Virus record (IMG/VR): IMGVR_UViG_3300045988_061229
Coordinates: 1-39,111 of that record
Length of the DNA: 39,111 nt
Reading direction: 5' to 3' (one strand)
DNA from: a virus
Positions within the stretch are counted from its first letter, which is position 1. Every line of letters begins with the position of its first letter. The translations under genes and the position numbers were made by a program. The notes below the pieces were generated by a model. It was not told the origin of the DNA, did no database searches, and saw only the letters and a list, made by a program, of their open reading frames with translations. This document shows, piece after piece, positions 3,772 through 35,078 of the stretch.

Positions 3772-3810
3772 AAAAGAAAAAGCACCCGCGGTCTGTTCAC
3801 GGATGCTTTT
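3772..3810 (-). terminator. intrinsic terminator, better oriented for minus-strand transcripts
   Basis: Stem AGCACCCG/CGGATGCT with one mismatch and an 11-nt loop. The minus strand continues TTTTCTTTTC. The plus strand has only TTT followed by CCCCC. Confidence 0.45.
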
Positions 3811-3987
3811 CCCCCAGATTTGTTTACCAGAACGCACTGCACAGGATGATCGGACACGTTGCTTTGCATCCGTCCGAATTGATGGGTTTCTTTCCATCGG
3901 CTCGGCAATGCCATCCTGACGCAAAATCAGACTTGCGCTTCTATGGACGCGCCGCTCACTTTGGCAGTTCCGGTTCTGCCCCTTGCC

Positions 3988-4044
3988 CTATCGCATCGCG
4001 CCGTTTCTTTGGTCTGGAACGGGCAAAGTCAAAAGGTTGGTCAT
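3988..4044 (-). CDS. 18-codon ORF (MTNLLTLPVPDQRNGAMR) with a perfect Shine-Dalgarno sequence
   Basis: AAGGAGGTG lies 6 nt upstream of the ATG, about 34 nt downstream of the predicted start site of the 4085-4113 promoter. Confidence 0.3.
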   Translation of the reverse strand: MTNLLTLPVPDQRNGAMR

Positions 4045-14254: not shown

Positions 14255-14812
14255 CTGTTTCCTCCTCCCTTGATAGCCCGCCCTTAGGGGCGGGCGGTTG
14301 AGGGCAAAAATGACAGGACTCCCCGCACCTCTCAACGATGTGGCCCAGGGGAGACATACGCAGACGTAGCTCAGTTGGTAGAGCACCGAACTTCGAGAGC
14401 CGGTATGTCGTGGGTCCGTGCCACACCGTCTGTGCCAGTGGCCGGGTAGCGCCCGGACAATGTGAGACCGTTGTCGTCATGGCTCACATGGAAATGACAA
14501 CGCTCGCTGAAAACTGCACCGTGGGAGGGAAACGCCTCAGCGTAATGGTGCTGCACTTGTAAAGCAGCAATCGGTGATGTGACAATCTAAGCGGGAAGAC
14601 GGCCAATTTGCGGCATAGGTGTCCCGTAAGGGGAGACCACAGCGAGTGACGGGGACTTTCCCTGAAGCGCTAAAGCAGGGCAGGGCTGCAATGCCGTACC
14701 AAAAGAGGAGAGCCGCTGCCCTGAGAGTGCGGCACGTTGTAGCCCCTCGGGGCGGGTAAAGTCTGCTATGTAAGGCCAAGGGGCGGGGGCTGGTAGCAAA
14801 TAAAGGTGCGAG
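14255..14812 (+). ncRNA. candidate large structured non-coding RNA (family unassigned; ROOL/GOLLD-like in size and context)
   Basis: About 560 bp with no credible ORF, lying between the early terminator and the terS RBS. It is packed with perfect GC-rich helices, two H-type pseudoknot arrangements, a GUAA-loop hairpin and an embedded tRNA-like element. Confidence 0.35.
14360..14437 (+). ncRNA. tRNA-like element with encoded CCA and a non-canonical anticodon arm and T-loop
   Basis: 7-bp acceptor GCAGACG/CGTCTGT followed by G and CCA. Canonical TA-GCTC-AGTTGGTA-GAGC D-arm. The anticodon arm has only 4 bp and a 12-nt loop. The T-arm GTGGG/CACAC has one mismatch and the loop TCCGTGC. Confidence 0.45.
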
Positions 14813-25697: not shown

Positions 25698-25925
25698 GTG
25701 GCGCGGCTCAATGAGAAAGCAAAAAACGACGCATACCGCATTTATGTGACTGACGCGCTGCGCGTGGTTGCGGAAAATACGGCCAGATTTGCGAGCGGGA
25801 ACTACATCAAGGCGCGATACGCGGACATTATTGAGCCGAAAAAACAGGACAACCGGACGTGCGAAGAAATCACCGCCGATATTGTCGCGCGGTGCGGATT
25901 GGTGGTGAAACATGAATCTACTTGA
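25698..25925 (+). CDS. gpT-like ORF (free-standing from the GTG at 25698, or a -1 frameshift extension of the chaperone)
   Basis: This reading frame is open from 25593 and lies in the -1 frame relative to 25282..25677. Confidence 0.4.
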   Translation: MARLNEKAKNDAYRIYVTDALRVVAENTARFASGNYIKARYADIIEPKKQDNRTCEEITADIVARCGLVVKHEST

Positions 25926-27681
25926 TTTATTCGTCAAAATCAGCGTAGACGATCAAGCAAGTTCCAATTTGGGCGGGATTGCGTCAAAAATTGGAAGCGG
26001 GCTGAAAACGGCGGCAAAAATCGGCACGGCGGCAGTTGCCGCCGCTGCCGGGGCCGTGTCCCTCTTAACAAAACAATCTTTGGACGGTTACGCGGAATAT
26101 GAACAGCTTGTCGGCGGCTTGGAAACGCTGTTTAAGCAGTCCGCCGATCAAGTGATAGAGTACGCAAATCGCGCCTACGAAACCGCCGGATTGTCTGCCA
26201 ACGAGTACATGGATACCGTTACATCTTTTTCGGCGTCCTTGCTGCAAGGTCTTGGCGGAGACACGGAAAAGGCGGCAGAGGTCGCCAATCAGGCCGTCAT
26301 TGACATGGCAGATAATGCCAACAAGATGGGCACAAGTATGGGAATGATCCAAAATGCCTATCAGGGTTTTGCCAAGCAGAACTATACCATGCTTGATAAC
26401 CTCAAGCTTGGCTATGGCGGCACGGCGTCCGAGATGGCGCGCCTTATTAACGATTCTGGGGTGTTGGGCGACACCGTTGAAGTTACAGCGGACACAGTCA
26501 ATAGCGTTTCTTTCGACAAGATGATTGAAGCAATCCATGTGATCCAAGATCAAATGGGAATCACCGGAACAACGGCGGAAGAGGCAGCCAGCACCATCGA
26601 AGGCAGCGTCAACATGATGAAATCCGCTTGGGCAAACCTTGTGACCGGAATTGCAGACGATAACGCGGACCTTGACAAGTTGATCGAAAACTTTACCTAT
26701 TCGGTCAGCAAGGCCGCAGAAAACATTATTCCGCGCATTGAAAAGATTTTCACGGGATTTGGCGATCTTATTGTAAAGCTTGCTCCGGTTATTTCTGAAC
26801 AACTGCCGTCGCTTGTAAGCTCTGTTTTGCCGTCGCTTGTAGATGCTGCCACAGCATTAGTGCAAGGCGTGGTAGACGCAGCGCCAGGCATCGTTTCGGC
26901 GCTTGCTGATATGGCGCCGCAAATCACCGGAGCGATTCTGTCAATTATACCCCAGCTATTAGATGTAGGCGTCCAAATGCTGATCGCATTAGTGCAAGGA
27001 ATTGCATCGGCTATGCCGGAAATTGCTCCGCAGTTAGCAAATTGCGTGGCACAGATTGCGGAAGTGTTGACACAACCAGACACGCTTGTTGCTCTTGTTG
27101 AAGCAAGTACGCTGTTTATCGTCGCGCTTGTTGAGGGGCTTGTTGATAATCTGCCCACGCTTTTGGCGGAAGCACCCAAGATTGTCAAAAATCTTGCGTC
27201 TGCATTTATCCAGTCTCTTAGCTATATCGGAGAAGCGGCAATCGAAATCGGCGTCGCTCTTGTCCAAGGCATTTGGGATGGCATTAAAAGGATGGGCGAC
27301 TGGCTTAAAAGCATGGTCGAGGGCTTTTTTGACGGTATTGTAGACGGCGTAAAATCAACGCTCGGCATCCACTCTCCGTCTCGCGTATTTGCGGGGATCG
27401 GCGCAAACATGGCGTTGGGTCTCGGAGAAGGATGGGACAGCGAGTTCGGTTCCATTAAGCGCGACATCTCGAAAAACCTTGACTTTGGAACCGCATCTAT
27501 TGATTTTGGAGCTTCCGGCGTTGCGGCTATTGGGAACTCTATCGCGTCCGGGATTGGCTCTATGGCAGCAGGAAAAGAAGGCCAAATCATCATCAACCTG
27601 ACGACCGAACTGGACGGCACCGTACTGGCTCGGAAAATGGTGCCTTACAATGAAGCAGAAGCGGTGAGGAGTGGAGCATGA
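25912..27681 (+). CDS. tape measure protein
   Basis: 589 aa, A/G/I-rich helical protein following the chaperone pair. Confidence 0.8.
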   Translation: MNLLDLFVKISVDDQASSNLGGIASKIGSGLKTAAKIGTAAVAAAAGAVSLLTKQSLDGYAEYEQLVGGLETLFKQSADQVIEYANRAYETAGLSANEYMDTVTSFSASLLQGLGGDTEKAAEVANQAVIDMADNANKMGTSMGMIQNAYQGFAKQNYTMLDNLKLGYGGTASEMARLINDSGVLGDTVEVTADTVNSVSFDKMIEAIHVIQDQMGITGTTAEEAASTIEGSVNMMKSAWANLVTGIADDNADLDKLIENFTYSVSKAAENIIPRIEKIFTGFGDLIVKLAPVISEQLPSLVSSVLPSLVDAATALVQGVVDAAPGIVSALADMAPQITGAILSIIPQLLDVGVQMLIALVQGIASAMPEIAPQLANCVAQIAEVLTQPDTLVALVEASTLFIVALVEGLVDNLPTLLAEAPKIVKNLASAFIQSLSYIGEAAIEIGVALVQGIWDGIKRMGDWLKSMVEGFFDGIVDGVKSTLGIHSPSRVFAGIGANMALGLGEGWDSEFGSIKRDISKNLDFGTASIDFGASGVAAIGNSIASGIGSMAAGKEGQIIINLTTELDGTVLARKMVPYNEAEAVRSGA

Positions 27682-32591: not shown

Positions 32592-32849
32592 ATGGCTACT
32601 ACTCGTATCGCATCCGACGGCAAGCCCATCAAAGTCACCGATACCCCCGCGGGCCTGAGCGAAAACTCGGGCGTCAAGAACAGCATCGTGCAGCCCGTTA
32701 TGGCGCGCGACCTTTCCCGCGCCGGCACGGAGATCTATGTCGCCCCCTGCTACAAGCTCACCTACGACGAGGACGGCTACTGCGTCAAGATGACGACCTG
32801 CGCCATCCCCGAGGACATCGCGGAAAAGCTCGCGGAGCTGAACAAGTAA
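32592..32849 (+). CDS. hypothetical protein (85 aa)
   Basis: Trimmed to the ATG at 32592, with an AAAGGAG RBS. Confidence 0.55.
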   Translation: MATTRIASDGKPIKVTDTPAGLSENSGVKNSIVQPVMARDLSRAGTEIYVAPCYKLTYDEDGYCVKMTTCAIPEDIAEKLAELNK

Positions 32850-32872
32850 AAAAAGCCGCCCGGGTGGTCGGC
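32848..32872 (-). terminator. minus-strand intrinsic terminator (candidate 3' end of the antisense RNA)
   Basis: On the minus strand: GCCGACC/GGGCGGC stem (one mismatch), ACCC loop, then TTTTTTT. The plus strand has no U-tract. Confidence 0.5.
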
Positions 32873-32875
32873 AAA

Positions 32876-32905
32876 TTGACAAAGCGCGGCAGACTGTGCT
32901 ATAAT
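32876..32905 (+). promoter_or_regulatory. near-consensus sigma-A promoter for the toxin mRNA
   Basis: TTGACA, 18 nt, TGcTATAAT (extended -10). Confidence 0.6.
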
Positions 32906-32959
32906 TCGCCTGCCGGTAAGAACGGCAAGGTTGTCCACTTCCTGCAAAGGGGGTGCGCG

Positions 32960-33049
32960 ATGGTTACATACGCTGATATGTTCACATATTCGCTTGTGCT
33001 CATCGGTCTTGCGTCTCTGATCTTTACGGTCACAAGACATAAGAAATAA
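32960..33049 (+). CDS. holin-like toxin family peptide (29 aa)
   Basis: MVTYADMFTYSLVLIGLASLIFTVTRHKK. Single TM helix with a basic tail. AAGGGGGTG RBS. Below the track cutoff. Confidence 0.6.
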   Translation: MVTYADMFTYSLVLIGLASLIFTVTRHKK

Positions 33050-33143
33050 CCGCCCACCATAGCGGTAAGCGGCGTTTCCTTCGAGCTATAAACTCACTGA
33101 GGGACGACCGCCACCAGCAATGGCAGCCGTTCTTACTGGCCTA

Positions 33144-33173
33144 AATATAGCACACCTAAAGCCGCTTTGTCAA
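33144..33173 (-). promoter_or_regulatory. near-consensus sigma-A promoter, leftward (antisense RNA)
   Basis: On the minus strand: TTGACA, 18 nt, TGcTATATT. Its -35 is embedded in the plus-strand terminator hairpin. Confidence 0.55.
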
Positions 33174-33194
33174 GCAAGACAAGGCGGCTTTTTT
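33161..33194 (+). terminator. rho-independent terminator of the toxin mRNA
   Basis: 11-bp stem GCCGCTTTGTC/GACAAGGCGGC, followed by TTTTTT. Confidence 0.75.
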
Positions 33195-33222
33195 CGCGCC
33201 GCCGGAAAGAGAGACAACGCCT

Positions 33223-33528
33223 ATGGAAAGTTTATCAAAATTGGCGGCGCTGTGCTCGGAGGTGACGGTCATCCTCGCGGCGGTCGCCATGCTCGTCAAG
33301 CCGCTGCGCAACAAGCTGCTTGGACTGGACAAGCTGACCGACGCGCTCAAATGCCAGCTCCGGCACGATATGCTGCACACCTACTACCGCCACAGGGAGG
33401 ACCGCACCATCCGGCAGTACGAGCTGGAGGATTTTCTCTATCTCTACCGCGGGTACAAGGCCCTCGGCGGAAACAGTTTCATTGACCGCATCAAAAGCGA
33501 GATCGACGAGTGGGAGGTAATGTCATGA
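33223..33528 (+). CDS. single-pass membrane protein, lysis-module associated
   Basis: N-terminal TM helix (LAALCSEVTVILAAVAMLV). ATGA coupling to the next gene. Confidence 0.55.
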   Translation: MESLSKLAALCSEVTVILAAVAMLVKPLRNKLLGLDKLTDALKCQLRHDMLHTYYRHREDRTIRQYELEDFLYLYRGYKALGGNSFIDRIKSEIDEWEVMS

Positions 33529-34232
33529 AAGACGTCAAGGGCTCAACCTCGGAGGAAATCCGCATGATAAAGGCCATCCAGCGCGCCGTTGGGGCGCTTG
33601 ACAACGGCTGGATCGGCAACCAGACCTTGAGCGACATCGCCGCCAAGCTCGGCGCGGACTGCTGGCCCCTTAACGTCGAACTGTACGGCCAGCCCTGCAT
33701 CCTCGCGCGGGACATCGAGCCTGTCAACATGAGCGGGCCGCTGCCGAAGAATGCGATCTCGGGGGGCTTTTCTTGGCAGGGTCAGCCGTGCAGCATTCTT
33801 GTGCGCGGCGGCAAGGTCGTGCGCGGCATGAGCTGTCACTACCCGACGCCCGAGAGCGTGCTCTACAAGATCCCGGGCGGCGCGGTGCGCATCGCCCGCG
33901 TGTCCTCGGCGGCGGCGCTGGGCGGCGTCGTGTGGGCGGTCGGTGGTATGGGATTGCTCGGCAATTATAACCCTGCCGCAGAGGGCTTCACAGGGGCGTT
34001 CAGCGACGTGCTGCGCAAAACCAACCACACCGTCCTCGGCTGCAAGGGCGGGCTGCTCTACGGCGTCTACTGCCGCAGCATGACCGCGCAGCAGGTCAAC
34101 GCCTTTTGTCGGGACAAGCTCAAGCTCACCCACGCCGTCATGCTCGACGGCGGGCACGTCGCCGCCATCCACGGCGCGTGTAACAAAATCAACACACAAA
34201 CGCGGCAATTCTATGCCGTTCGGTTTTTGTAA
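33525..34232 (+). CDS. putative cell-wall hydrolase (PG-binding-like N-terminus, phosphodiester-glycosidase-like C-terminus)
   Basis: Trimmed to the ATG at 33525. The IKAIQRAVGALDNGWIGNQTLSDI and ...AVMLDGGH patterns support a tentative family call. Confidence 0.4.
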   Translation: MKDVKGSTSEEIRMIKAIQRAVGALDNGWIGNQTLSDIAAKLGADCWPLNVELYGQPCILARDIEPVNMSGPLPKNAISGGFSWQGQPCSILVRGGKVVRGMSCHYPTPESVLYKIPGGAVRIARVSSAAALGGVVWAVGGMGLLGNYNPAAEGFTGAFSDVLRKTNHTVLGCKGGLLYGVYCRSMTAQQVNAFCRDKLKLTHAVMLDGGHVAAIHGACNKINTQTRQFYAVRFL

Positions 34233-34243
34233 AGGAGGCAAAA

Positions 34244-34432
34244 ATGCAAAATCGACTTGCAAACCTTCTCACGGTCAAGAGCATCGTGACCATCGCGCTC
34301 ACGGCGGTTTTCTCGGTGCTTGCCTTGCGCGGCAGCATCAGCGGGACGGAGTTTTTGACGATCTTCACGACCATCATCGCCTTCTACTTCGGCACCCAGA
34401 CCGAAAAGAAGAAAAATGAAGAGGTTTCTTGA
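34244..34432 (+). CDS. holin (two TM helices, charged C-terminus)
   Basis: 62 aa. AAGGAGG RBS. KKKNEE tail. Lies between two wall hydrolase genes. Confidence 0.6.
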   Translation: MQNRLANLLTVKSIVTIALTAVFSVLALRGSISGTEFLTIFTTIIAFYFGTQTEKKKNEEVS

Positions 34433-35078
34433 GACCTTGACCGCGTGGGAGGGCGCGGTGCGCGGCGACGCGGTGCACAAGAGCATTGTGGACGCCTACA
34501 ACAGCTACCTCCCGCATCCGCGCGGCTACAAGCTCACCTACACCGACGACTACTGCGCGGCGACCGTCAGCGCGGCGGCGATCCTCTGCGGCCTGACAGA
34601 GGTCATTCCCATCGAGTGCAGCTGCGGCGAGCAGATGCGGTGGTATCAGGCGCGCGGCCAATGGATCGAGGACGACGCGCACATCCCAACGGTCGGCGAG
34701 CAGGTGTTTTACCACTGGAACGACCGCAAGGACTACGCCCTCACGGACTGCACGGGCGCGCCCAACCACACGGGCATCGTGACCGCCTGCGACGGGCAGA
34801 GCTTCACGGTGTTCGAGGGGAACAAGGGCAAAACCCATGAGTGCGCGTACCGCGTCATCCCCGTCAACGGGTGCTATATCCGCGGCTTTGGCGTGCCGAA
34901 ATATCCAGCGGACAAGACCGTGCTTGTGCGCGGCGACAAGGGCGAGGCGGTCGGGAAGCTGCAAGAGTTCCTAAACGCCTGCGGCTACGCGCTGGATGTG
35001 GACAACTCGTTCGGCCCCGCGACGCAAAGGGCGTGGGGGGAATATGTTTACGCATACCTCGGAAAAATTCTAAAATAA
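34416..35078 (+). CDS. CHAP/NlpC-P60-type amidase endolysin with C-terminal PG_binding_1 domain
   Basis: DDYCAATVSAAA (Cys) and NHTGIVTACDGQSFTVFEGN (His) motifs. C-terminal LVRGDKGEAVGKLQEFLNACGY..DNSFGPATQRA. Confidence 0.7.
   Translation: MKRFLETLTAWEGAVRGDAVHKSIVDAYNSYLPHPRGYKLTYTDDYCAATVSAAAILCGLTEVIPIECSCGEQMRWYQARGQWIEDDAHIPTVGEQVFYHWNDRKDYALTDCTGAPNHTGIVTACDGQSFTVFEGNKGKTHECAYRVIPVNGCYIRGFGVPKYPADKTVLVRGDKGEAVGKLQEFLNACGYALDVDNSFGPATQRAWGEYVYAYLGKILK

Follow-up and report, generated by a model that had tools for sequence, protein, structure and literature searches.

The stretch of DNA considered here, called the window, is the whole 39,111 nucleotides of IMG/VR virus record IMGVR_UViG_3300045988_061229, a siphophage-like prophage. 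The gene of its tape-measure protein (25912-27681) is followed by genes of tail-region proteins and then by a small cassette, in which two promoters face each other across an open reading frame (ORF) for a peptide of 29 amino acids (aa). On the 3' side of the cassette come the gene of a 101-aa phrog_4105 protein, function unassigned, and an endolysin gene at 34416-35078, the nearest such gene, 1.2 kb away. A preliminary description, made from the letters alone, took the cassette for a type I toxin-antitoxin (TA) locus. Both promoters, the ORF, the outer terminator and the 5'-3' complementarity that it listed are all there, and together they make up a self-contained unit of small ORF and convergent antisense RNA, an architecture that has been kept across more than 150 cassettes. 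The window holds a single copy, as judged by an nhmmer profile of the type-A cassette, one of two types described below.

A scanner for consensus promoters finds exactly two sites of the sigma-70 type between 31.5 and 34.5 kb: P+, which would transcribe the peptide ORF, and P-, which faces it from the other strand (Table 1). Over all 39 kb, three sites match at 11 or more of 12 positions, P+ and P- being two of them, and only these two are extended by TG. Random sequences from a first-order Markov model of the window hold 0.23 sites of this quality per window, none with TG. The convergent near-consensus promoters seen earlier are thus confirmed, at 12/12 and 11/12, and the -35 of P- does indeed lie within the stem of the outer plus-strand terminator. 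Promoters, ORF, closing helix and outer terminator are far beyond chance. The third promoter site, TTGACA-17-TACAAT at 3720-3692 on the minus strand, belongs to a different part of the window; it lies immediately downstream of a full-length FuFi-1 RNA on the same strand (3776-4001; Rfam RF02986, 102.5 bits, E 2.5e-21).

The RNA that P+ would make is strongly folded. From 32912 to 33196 it reaches -119.6 kcal/mol, compared with -79.6 +/- 4.6 for dinucleotide shuffles (z -8.7). In its minimum free energy (MFE) structure the first bases, GCCGGTAAGAACGGC (32912-32926), pair with GCCGTTCTTACTGGC (33126-33140) in a closing helix of 15 bp with one G-U pair, as had been claimed, and the same structure includes an 8-bp hairpin around the Shine-Dalgarno (SD) sequence and the 14-bp stem of the terminator. 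The SD, GGGGGTG, stands 4 nt upstream of the ATG at 32960. Both SD and AUG are paired with a probability of about 1.0, when the RNA folds freely and also in constrained folding with the antisense target blocked. Forced duplex folding suggested that leader and 3' untranslated region (UTR) might form an anti-SD/pseudo-SD switch; constrained folding does not support this, and the segments concerned are invariant.

How long is the antisense RNA? The preliminary description had it run some 290 nt, over the ORF, its ribosome-binding site (RBS) and its promoter. On the minus strand, directly past the stop codon, the scanner finds a hairpin (33073-33049) followed by UAUUUCUUAU, a feature that description lacked. 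The U-tract, UUAUUUCUU(U), is the complement of AAG AAA TAA, that is, of Lys-Lys-stop. The hairpin is worth -19.9 kcal/mol (z -3.9) on the minus strand and -12.1 kcal/mol on the plus strand, the former being more stable because of G.U pairs. Hairpin and U-tract are predicted to be an intrinsic terminator for the antisense RNA, which is therefore probably about 100 nt long and lies over the 3' UTR. The 290-nt form is unlikely to be the main product; it would be at most read-through, stopped by the terminator predicted at the left end. The shorter RNA folds at -42.9 kcal/mol (z -4.45) and would overlap the mRNA by about 98 nt (33040-33137), in a perfect duplex of about 100 bp that takes in the 3' UTR and the last three codons. 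The segment 33126-33140 is complementary to the first bases of the predicted antisense RNA. At the level of sequence the cassette has what type I systems have, an antisense gene that brings a promoter of its own and lies across the predicted toxin mRNA.

The cassette is closed off on both sides. The strong terminator on the right would shield the downstream genes from P+. The consensus scanner does not call it, probably, at a guess, because its maximal stem consumes part of the T-run. On the left, the minus-strand terminator of the preliminary description is there as regards hairpin and U7, and it is weak (-9 kcal/mol, z -1.5) because one base departs from the perfect 7-bp stem, GCCGCCC/GGGCGGC, of the relatives. 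Nearly all cassettes examined have this hairpin, which is predicted to halt antisense read-through ahead of the tail genes. The two ends, moreover, are alike: the right end, read from 33194 to 33126 on the minus strand, matches positions 8-84 of the left end of the type-A profile (nhmmer E 7.6e-4 in the window, 6.5e-5 in relatives), giving terminal inverted repeats of about 70 nt. The cassette is thus bounded by an inverted pair of terminator-promoter-leader modules, and both RNAs would therefore start with nearly the same 15 nt or so, GCCGGUAAGAACGGC and (GGCC)AGUAAGAACGGC. RNAalifold had paired left and right ends of the cassette as an RNA structure; the columns are promoter and terminator DNA outside the transcripts, and the pairing is reinterpreted here as the terminal inverted repeat. 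Rfam, searched over the whole window at gathering thresholds and over the region at E<=10, has no relevant family at the cassette. The region scan gave noise only, such as the plasmid R1162 antisense model at E 8.3.

Table 1. Elements of the cassette, in window positions; transcripts and terminators are predictions.
Element	Position	Strand	Remarks
Left boundary: terminator-like hairpin GCCGaCC ACCC GGgCGGC, then U7	32848-32872	-	read from sequence
P+, promoter of peptide mRNA, TTGACA-18-TGcTATAAT	32876-32905	+	12/12 match plus TG
Predicted sense (toxin) mRNA, about 283 nt	32912-33194	+	start inferred from the -10; end at the outer terminator
5' arm of closing helix, GCCGGUAAGAACGGC	32912-32926	+	nearly the same as the predicted antisense 5' end
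Anti-SD/SD hairpin CACUUCCU-GCAA-AGGGGGUG, 8 bp	32936-32955	+	pairing probability about 1.0 for SD and AUG
29-aa ORF, MVTYADMFTYSLVLIGLASLIFTVTRHKK + stop	32960-33049 (ATG 32960, TAA 33047-33049)	+	one predicted transmembrane helix, basic tail
Predicted antitoxin RNA, about 100 nt	about 33137 to 33038-33040	-	start from the -10 of P-; end from the terminator
Predicted intrinsic terminator of antisense RNA, 10-11-bp hairpin (33073-33049) + UUAUUUCUU	33040-33073	-	scanner and folding
3'-UTR stem-loop UUCCU...GAGC-loop-CUC...GAGGGA	33075-33105	+	inside the antisense target; covariation
3' arm of closing helix, GCCGUUCUUACUGGC	33126-33140	+	complement of the antisense RNA's first bases
P-, promoter of antisense RNA, TTGACA-18-TGcTATATT	33173-33144	-	11/12 match plus TG
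Right boundary: strong terminator, 14-bp stem + U6	33158-33194	+	-22.8 kcal/mol, z -5.4

Relatives were sought in two ways. A degenerate DNA pattern covering codons 1-10, together with a search by the 101-aa protein encoded downstream, yielded 119 viral loci; a scan with the conserved right end of the cassette yielded 101 viral loci and 10 genome loci. The genome loci are all from Oscillospiraceae, Dysosmobacter or unclassified Clostridiales (nine metagenome-assembled or uncultured-genome assemblies and one isolate). A related cassette (L183) is found in the isolate Oscillospiraceae bacterium CM18GR_63. The total is 153 cassettes, 88 of them distinct, which fall into 21 clusters at 97% identity and come from gut viral contigs and Oscillospiraceae/Dysosmobacter genomes. 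They are built on two leader scaffolds, types A and B, and carry at least nine classes of peptide, for example MVTYESLFAYSLVIIGLVGLIVQICKRK, MGNGRWARAFRFAVCFIIILAVMIYISPKAC and the non-hydrophobic MRITLHIGRFTVTIIVKSRNRHSAK. A viral scan with the over-restrictive pattern GTAAGARCGK...GGTTGTNNNNYCC returned one known cassette and otherwise unrelated sequence (five near-identical coding-like copies and one other stretch). Neither a DNA search in distant mode nor tblastn with two of the peptides found a match among the phage records of INPHARED, so that no cultured phage record there carries the cassette.

Every cluster has both promoters. P+ is TTGACA, a spacer of 17 or 18 and a TAnnAT-like -10, usually with TGn before it (one copy has TAGAAG); the -10 of P- is TATATT, TATAAT or TATACT (TATAAC in one copy) at 16-18 nt from TTGACA. 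Because the -35 of P- was part of the first search pattern, the test was repeated with a central motif that lacks both promoters, Lys-Lys-stop plus the hairpin that follows it. This yielded 11 further divergent cassettes, some of low G+C, and these too keep P+ and P- (the latter TTGACA or TTGACT, a 17/18 spacer, and TATAAT, TATACT, TAGAAT or TATCCT). The convergent promoters and the 5'-3' complementarity, which a type I reading would lead one to expect in homologues, are therefore conserved across more than 150 cassettes, the promoter-blind ones included.

Then there is the evidence of covariation. In the 21 clusters, the first 45-60 nt of the sense RNA form duplexes of -38 to -59 kcal/mol with the 58 nt that end at the antisense start, compared with -21 to -33 kcal/mol for shuffles. 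The divergent cassettes have new closure arms, e.g. AAUCAAGAGAGGCGGC, GCAAGAGGGG and GUUAAGAGGGGC; counting both scans there are at least 8 different arm sequences, and the helix can therefore have been maintained only by compensatory change. Five helices (closure, SD hairpin and three 3'-UTR helices) were followed through 73 distinct type-A cassettes. Their alignment cells are paired in 99.1% of cases, as against 92.1% in shuffles (none of 500 reaches the observed value) and 40-55% with the partners slid, and 8 pairs have changed on both sides, as against 1-3 in the slid controls. Covariation of the pairing in homologous loci, proposed at the outset as a check, is accordingly found in the closure itself, among A-U, G-C and G-U, at alignment columns 91:309 and 84:316. 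The SD hairpin, which occurs in all classes, has a compensatory C-G/U-A exchange at 109:122 in 29 sequences, and in the stem-loop at 33075-33105 all three pairs of the inner helix covary.

The changes also tell the strand. The closure and the outer 3'-UTR helix frequently use G.U or U.G pairs, which are A.C mismatches on the opposite strand; the U-G pairs of the outer helix at 33075-33105 are valid on the plus strand only. These helices are therefore selected in plus-strand RNA, and the sense transcript must therefore run through the 3' UTR. The post-stop hairpin is biased the other way, towards the minus strand, in 19 of the 21 clusters. In type A the minus strand has -16.5 to -17.2 kcal/mol and the plus strand -8.2 to -9.6, an advantage of about 7-9 kcal/mol; in most type B cassettes the advantage is about 5 kcal/mol.

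The peptide, with a hydrophobic core YSLVLIGLASLIFTV and the tail RHKK, has what is looked for in a type I toxin: fewer than 60 aa, hydrophobicity, a predicted transmembrane segment and a charged C-terminus. This is the criterion as published (PMC6563280). The identical peptide is found on 448 public contigs, as a "hypothetical protein" in most sources and under one spurious MotB label. Judged by its substitutions, the ORF is under purifying selection: the unique changes within classes are 14 synonymous and 19 non-synonymous, where 23% would be expected to be synonymous (p = 0.012), and the replacements are mostly conservative (V/I/L, A/V, R/K). All cassettes but one, in which the start-finder found no start, have a start codon, a well-spaced SD and a frame of 25-31 aa, and most classes retain a hydrophobic core with a Lys/Arg tail though the peptide sequence has been replaced. 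Two other frames were considered and rejected. A GTG start that would give 61 aa lies upstream of the inferred start of transcription, and a 53-aa ORF on the minus strand (33060-32899) has no SD and is absent from other classes. There is no leader ORF overlapping the toxin start in the window cassette.

The peptide had been said to resemble the Hol-Tox family. Pfam PF16935 Hol_Tox, the TxpA/BsrG family, has a gathering threshold of 23.3 bits. The window peptide matches nothing in Pfam at E<=1 or in NCBIfam at E<=10, and its T9A variant nothing in Pfam at E<=10. The relatives do give weak matches to Hol_Tox, the best of them, MVTYESLFAYSLVIIGLVGLIVQICKRK, at a sub-threshold 17.3 bits (E 0.0045) and others at E 0.017-0.7. 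By comparison BsrG, TxpA and BsrE score 31-48 bits, TxpA 31.3; the BsrG sequence used is 100% identical in SPbeta. Nine cassette peptides aligned by hhalign with the same three gave a probability of 59% (P 9.3e-5) over 24 columns from residue 1. The resemblance is sub-threshold only, and the peptide's membership of the Hol_Tox family is therefore unproven.

The surroundings of the cassette vary. Upstream of the gene of the 101-aa protein, related phages have a cassette with the window peptide, a cassette with a different one (MSTEATIALLMLVIAAIKLGIDLKK, MTTMEVLTLLLLLAAVIFGILGYIKK), or an empty site that holds only a short hairpin. Elsewhere the cassette has tail genes on both sides, lies close to head genes, or comes after a 464-aa gene that is unrelated. 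Where filled and empty sites are compared, resident sequence has been replaced and there is no target-site duplication, for which reason a transposon-style insertion was rejected. With such different flanking genes, and with sites that are empty, the cassette is therefore an autonomous unit that is not tied to lysis genes. A holin or other lysis component would not be expected to have its own promoter and terminator, to be missing from related phages and to turn up in other gene contexts. The preliminary description had placed the locus just upstream of the lysis cassette; the endolysin gene is close, and the position is incidental. From these contexts the cassette is best taken as a moron and not as part of the lysis cassette.

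Some of these sites deserve a closer look. In five loci (L071, L082, L096, L098 and L113) a GC-rich hairpin such as GAGCGGGGGCTATCCCCCGCTC takes the place of the cassette, about 60-110 nt upstream of the homologue of the gene at 33223. In three others (L084, L095 and L107) a similar hairpin, GGCCGGAGGCAACTCCGGCC, is retained and the cassette is inserted just after it.

Among known type I systems, bsrG/SR4 of Bacillus subtilis is a close match to the cassette. The bsrG mRNA, 296 nt long, pairs nt 1-35 at its 5' end with nt 232-262 in helix P1, holds its SD within a GC helix, and has its terminator one nucleotide after P1; SR4 binds to the 3' half of this helix, and on binding the 5' arm becomes single-stranded (PMC3834814). 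More generally, type I pairs of B. subtilis share 100-140 bp at their 3' ends, keep the RBS in 4-5 GC pairs and act by degradation via RNase III (PMC6562991). The cassette is likewise prophage-borne, with a predicted toxin mRNA of about 290 nt, a P1-like 5'-3' helix just before the terminator, an RBS in a GC-rich helix (the CCCC/GGGG hairpin around the SD is visible at bsrG too, in the SPbeta sequence), and a small one-helix toxin with a Lys tail. Its convergent antisense RNA would cover the 3' UTR over some 98 nt, if the predicted ends are right, including the 3' arm of the helix, and would so free the 5' arm. Even the antitoxin terminator, placed just past the stop codon with Lys codons as its U-tract, seems to be shared: in SPbeta an A-run of bsrG Lys codons lies where the 3' end of SR4 is calculated to fall (its published length of 183 nt, counted from a predicted promoter), so that the U-tract of SR4 would be its complement. 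In the RefSeq record of SPbeta (NC_001884, 12342-13255; ORF at positions 401-517 of that segment), the bsrG ORF carries no annotation, although BsrG and its translation agree at 100%; even reference phage records still overlook small toxins of type I.

The two systems differ in several respects. In bsrG/SR4 the antisense promoter lies beyond the toxin terminator; here it is upstream of it and partly inside it. The antitoxin would therefore be only about 100 nt and begin exactly at the 3' arm of the closure, and it is predicted to lack the non-complementary 5' part of SR4 and the complement of the terminator. Here, too, the promoter-leader modules form an inverted repeat of about 70 nt and both RNAs start alike. 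The closing helix is 15 bp, or 25-30 bp in type B relatives, compared with 35 nt in bsrG. The putative toxin has 29 aa where BsrG has 38, and misses the Hol_Tox threshold; the host clade is Oscillospiraceae. Finally, the dual function of SR4, whose binding extends the sequestration of the SD, has no counterpart in the predictions made here, because SD and AUG are already paired at about 1. None of this makes the locus a new kind of system: it is a widespread, so far unannotated member of the bsrG/SR4 class.

Other systems share less. The genes of txpA/RatA, from the skin element of B. subtilis, and of EF3263, from Enterococcus faecalis, are convergent and overlap at their 3' ends, and the antitoxin acts by degradation. 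TxpA has 59 aa and RatA 222 nt. The toxins of txpA and EF3263 begin M-[ST]-[TV]-Y-E-S-L, those here MVTYADM or MVTYESL, and TxpA and the window peptide have no significant match in sequence. The prophage TA modules of Clostridioides difficile, such as CD0956.2-RCd10 and CD2517.1-RCd8, are also from Clostridia and have a convergent overlap and toxins with a hydrophobic N-terminus and a Lys-rich C-terminus; they have been proposed to act in prophage maintenance (PMC6563280; PMC7699646). Compared here by description only, their toxins are of 50-53 aa and reported to be without homology to other type I toxins.

The closure had been likened to that of hok. In hok and aapA1, the full-length toxin mRNA is held by 5'-3' pairing in a compact form that is not translated, and the activation of hok requires trimming of the extreme 3' end. 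The cassette has the long-range pairing in common with hok/sok and aapA1/IsoA1. But hok is the wrong analogue. Its antisense RNA targets the 5' leader (mok) region (PMC6562991); the cassette has no leader ORF, and its predicted antisense RNA faces the 3' part of the mRNA. The 3' arm, moreover, is not at the end of the mRNA: 18 nt downstream of it stands the 14-bp stem of the terminator (33158-33191), by which hok-like trimming would be blocked. Helix P1 of bsrG is closer. Fst/par of pAD1 has a bidirectional terminator shared by both RNAs and complementary repeats at their 5' ends. A shared terminator of this kind was considered for the cassette and rejected, the central hairpin being minus-biased and the 5' ends of the RNAs nearly identical, not complementary.

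I propose that the cassette is a type I TA-type module with the architecture of bsrG/SR4 (TxpA/BsrG), an autonomous moron within a siphophage-like prophage of Oscillospiraceae, and I would put the probability of this at roughly 0.68. The module would work as follows. P+ would give rise to an mRNA of about 283 nt for a membrane peptide of 29 aa. With its first bases bound to a segment of the 3' UTR in a 15-bp helix, and with SD and AUG buried in hairpins, the mRNA would therefore be compact and poorly translated. P-, located between the 3' segment of the closure and the mRNA terminator, would make an antisense RNA of about 100 nt that ends past the stop codon. First contact between the two would probably be through the loops of the 3'-UTR hairpins, as with SR4 and bsrG, and pairing would then zip along the 3' UTR. 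The 5' end of the antisense RNA, near-identical to that of the mRNA, would compete for the 3' arm of the closure and open the helix, and the duplex of about 100 bp would be a substrate for RNase III, by which the mRNA would be destroyed. If the supply of antisense RNA failed, e.g. on loss of the prophage, then the mRNA, being structured, would persist for longer, and membrane damage by the peptide would follow. The module might serve in prophage addiction or in phage exclusion. The outer terminators would meanwhile insulate tail and lysis genes from two very strong promoters.

Several things weigh against this proposal. For every member of the group the case for a type I TA system is one of sequence. 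The window peptide has no match in Pfam or NCBIfam, its relatives reach at most 17.3 of the 23.3 bits needed, and the profile comparison ends at 59%. The folding predicts that SD and AUG are paired at about 1 in the free and in the antisense-bound RNA, which would leave the activation of translation unexplained and predicts no translational effect like that of SR4. Within a few clades the sequences are closely related, and cell counts overstate the number of independent events. The inverted repeat could owe its conserved ends to something at the level of DNA, such as the binding of a protein or gene conversion, and not to RNA pairing. And one scaffold bears a non-hydrophobic ORF, MRITLHIGRFTVTIIVKSRNRHSAK, which is unlike a pore-forming toxin.

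The main alternative view is that the peptide is no toxin to its own cell, and that this is an antisense-regulated moron for superinfection exclusion, modulation of a membrane protein or tuning of lysis timing, with the antisense RNA holding expression low. A self-contained promoter-gene-terminator unit between phage genes is the classic layout of a moron, so tight a sequestration from translation would suit any dose-sensitive peptide, and the classes of peptide do differ widely, one not even hydrophobic; Fozo et al. (PMC2887945) report overproduction of at least one type I candidate without toxicity. It would be odd, however, for such a moron to follow a proven toxin system point by point in its closing helix, SD hairpin, 3' antisense overlap and overlap of Lys tail with terminator. 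Weak matches recur to Hol_Tox and to no other family, and the cassette is not linked to lysis genes. I consider the view unlikely.

It is far less likely still that the product is RNA only, a structured sense RNA or a trans-acting small RNA or both, and the ORF incidental. The folds are strong (z -8.7 sense, -4.45 antisense) and between classes the non-coding scaffold is more conserved than the ORF, both in favour of this view, but every class keeps a start codon and a well-spaced SD, codon changes are biased to the synonymous and conservative, the length of the ORF and its hydrophobic-plus-Lys-tail character survive replacement of the sequence, and Rfam offers no family. Equally improbable is the view that the cassette acts as DNA, as a mobile or recombining module (a MITE-like element bounded by terminal inverted repeats, or a block that insulates in both directions), and that its promoter-like and terminator-like motifs are by-products without a TA function: the repeats of about 70 nt (E 7.6e-4 to 6.5e-5), the presence/absence polymorphism, the several insertion contexts and the tandem copies speak for it, whereas insertion replaces resident sequence with no target-site duplication, selection acts on the internal ORF, on the SD hairpin and on the hairpins specific to one strand, and the promoter hexamers are kept while flanking bases diverge.

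The type I TA proposal can be carried a step further, into territory where I am doubtful and regard the idea only as possible. The cassette may be a portable chassis for antisense-guarded micro-ORFs. Its inverted modules would give both RNAs the same first 13-15 nt or so, making the antitoxin a mimic of the mRNA 5' end that displaces the 5' arm; the chassis would repeatedly have taken up very different ORFs of 25-31 aa, of at least 6 classes with one that is not hydrophobic, would spread singly or in tandem through phages of human-gut Oscillospiraceae and other Clostridia, and could serve in addiction or against other phages.

Type I TA systems are difficult to detect by sequence, and the best-studied ones are those of Enterobacteria, Bacilli, Helicobacter and C. 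difficile. If the proposal is right, these would be joined by a large group that has so far escaped annotation, namely this locus with more than 150 relatives, in prophages of the abundant Oscillospiraceae of the human gut. The P1 design of bsrG, where the antitoxin is directed at one arm of the mRNA's closing helix, would then be in use well outside Bacillus. The modules may affect the stability of prophages or phage resistance in gut commensals. The conserved RNA scaffold (facing promoters, closing helix, SD hairpin, Lys-codon terminator) is a far better search handle than the peptides, and a covariance model built from it could serve to annotate these modules in gut viromes. The two promoters, very strong and insulated, are also potential genetic parts for these poorly tractable bacteria.

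A few cassettes are put together differently. In IMGVR_UViG_3300029928_000132 (L214), at about 2434 on the minus strand, a type-A cassette with a MSTAETIALL... peptide is directly followed, in tandem, by a type-B promoter and leader; this second promoter stands where the first cassette would normally have its outer terminator. The type-B scaffold with the non-hydrophobic ORF MRITLHIGRFTVTIIVKSRNRHSAK (L122, 3190-3508, plus strand) is without the usual post-stop hairpin (-1.5 kcal/mol on the minus strand). Four viral contigs of low G+C (L198, L219, L221 and L225) have divergent cassettes without the outer plus-strand terminator. In L198, P- (TTGACT-17-TATACT) overlaps the RBS of a downstream gene that starts MAKTKAEIQRDYEKR; the other three are similar in sequence downstream and have no ATG at that position. 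In cassettes like that of L198 the sense RNA may read into the downstream gene, a wiring unlike that of the window.

As for the neighbours in the window, the 101-aa phrog_4105 protein (33223-33528, plus strand) has an N-terminal hydrophobic segment, and the next gene (33510-34232, plus strand) encodes a protein of 240 aa with only a weak NAGPA-like Pfam match (E 0.0068); the two may be the holin and a second lysis enzyme. Farther off, at 14360-14434 on the plus strand, Rfam gives a tRNA at 32.8 bits (gathering score 29) with an unusual insertion of 12 nt, where ARAGORN calls none in the whole window. The match may be spurious, or it may mark a phage tRNA that is degenerate or atypical.

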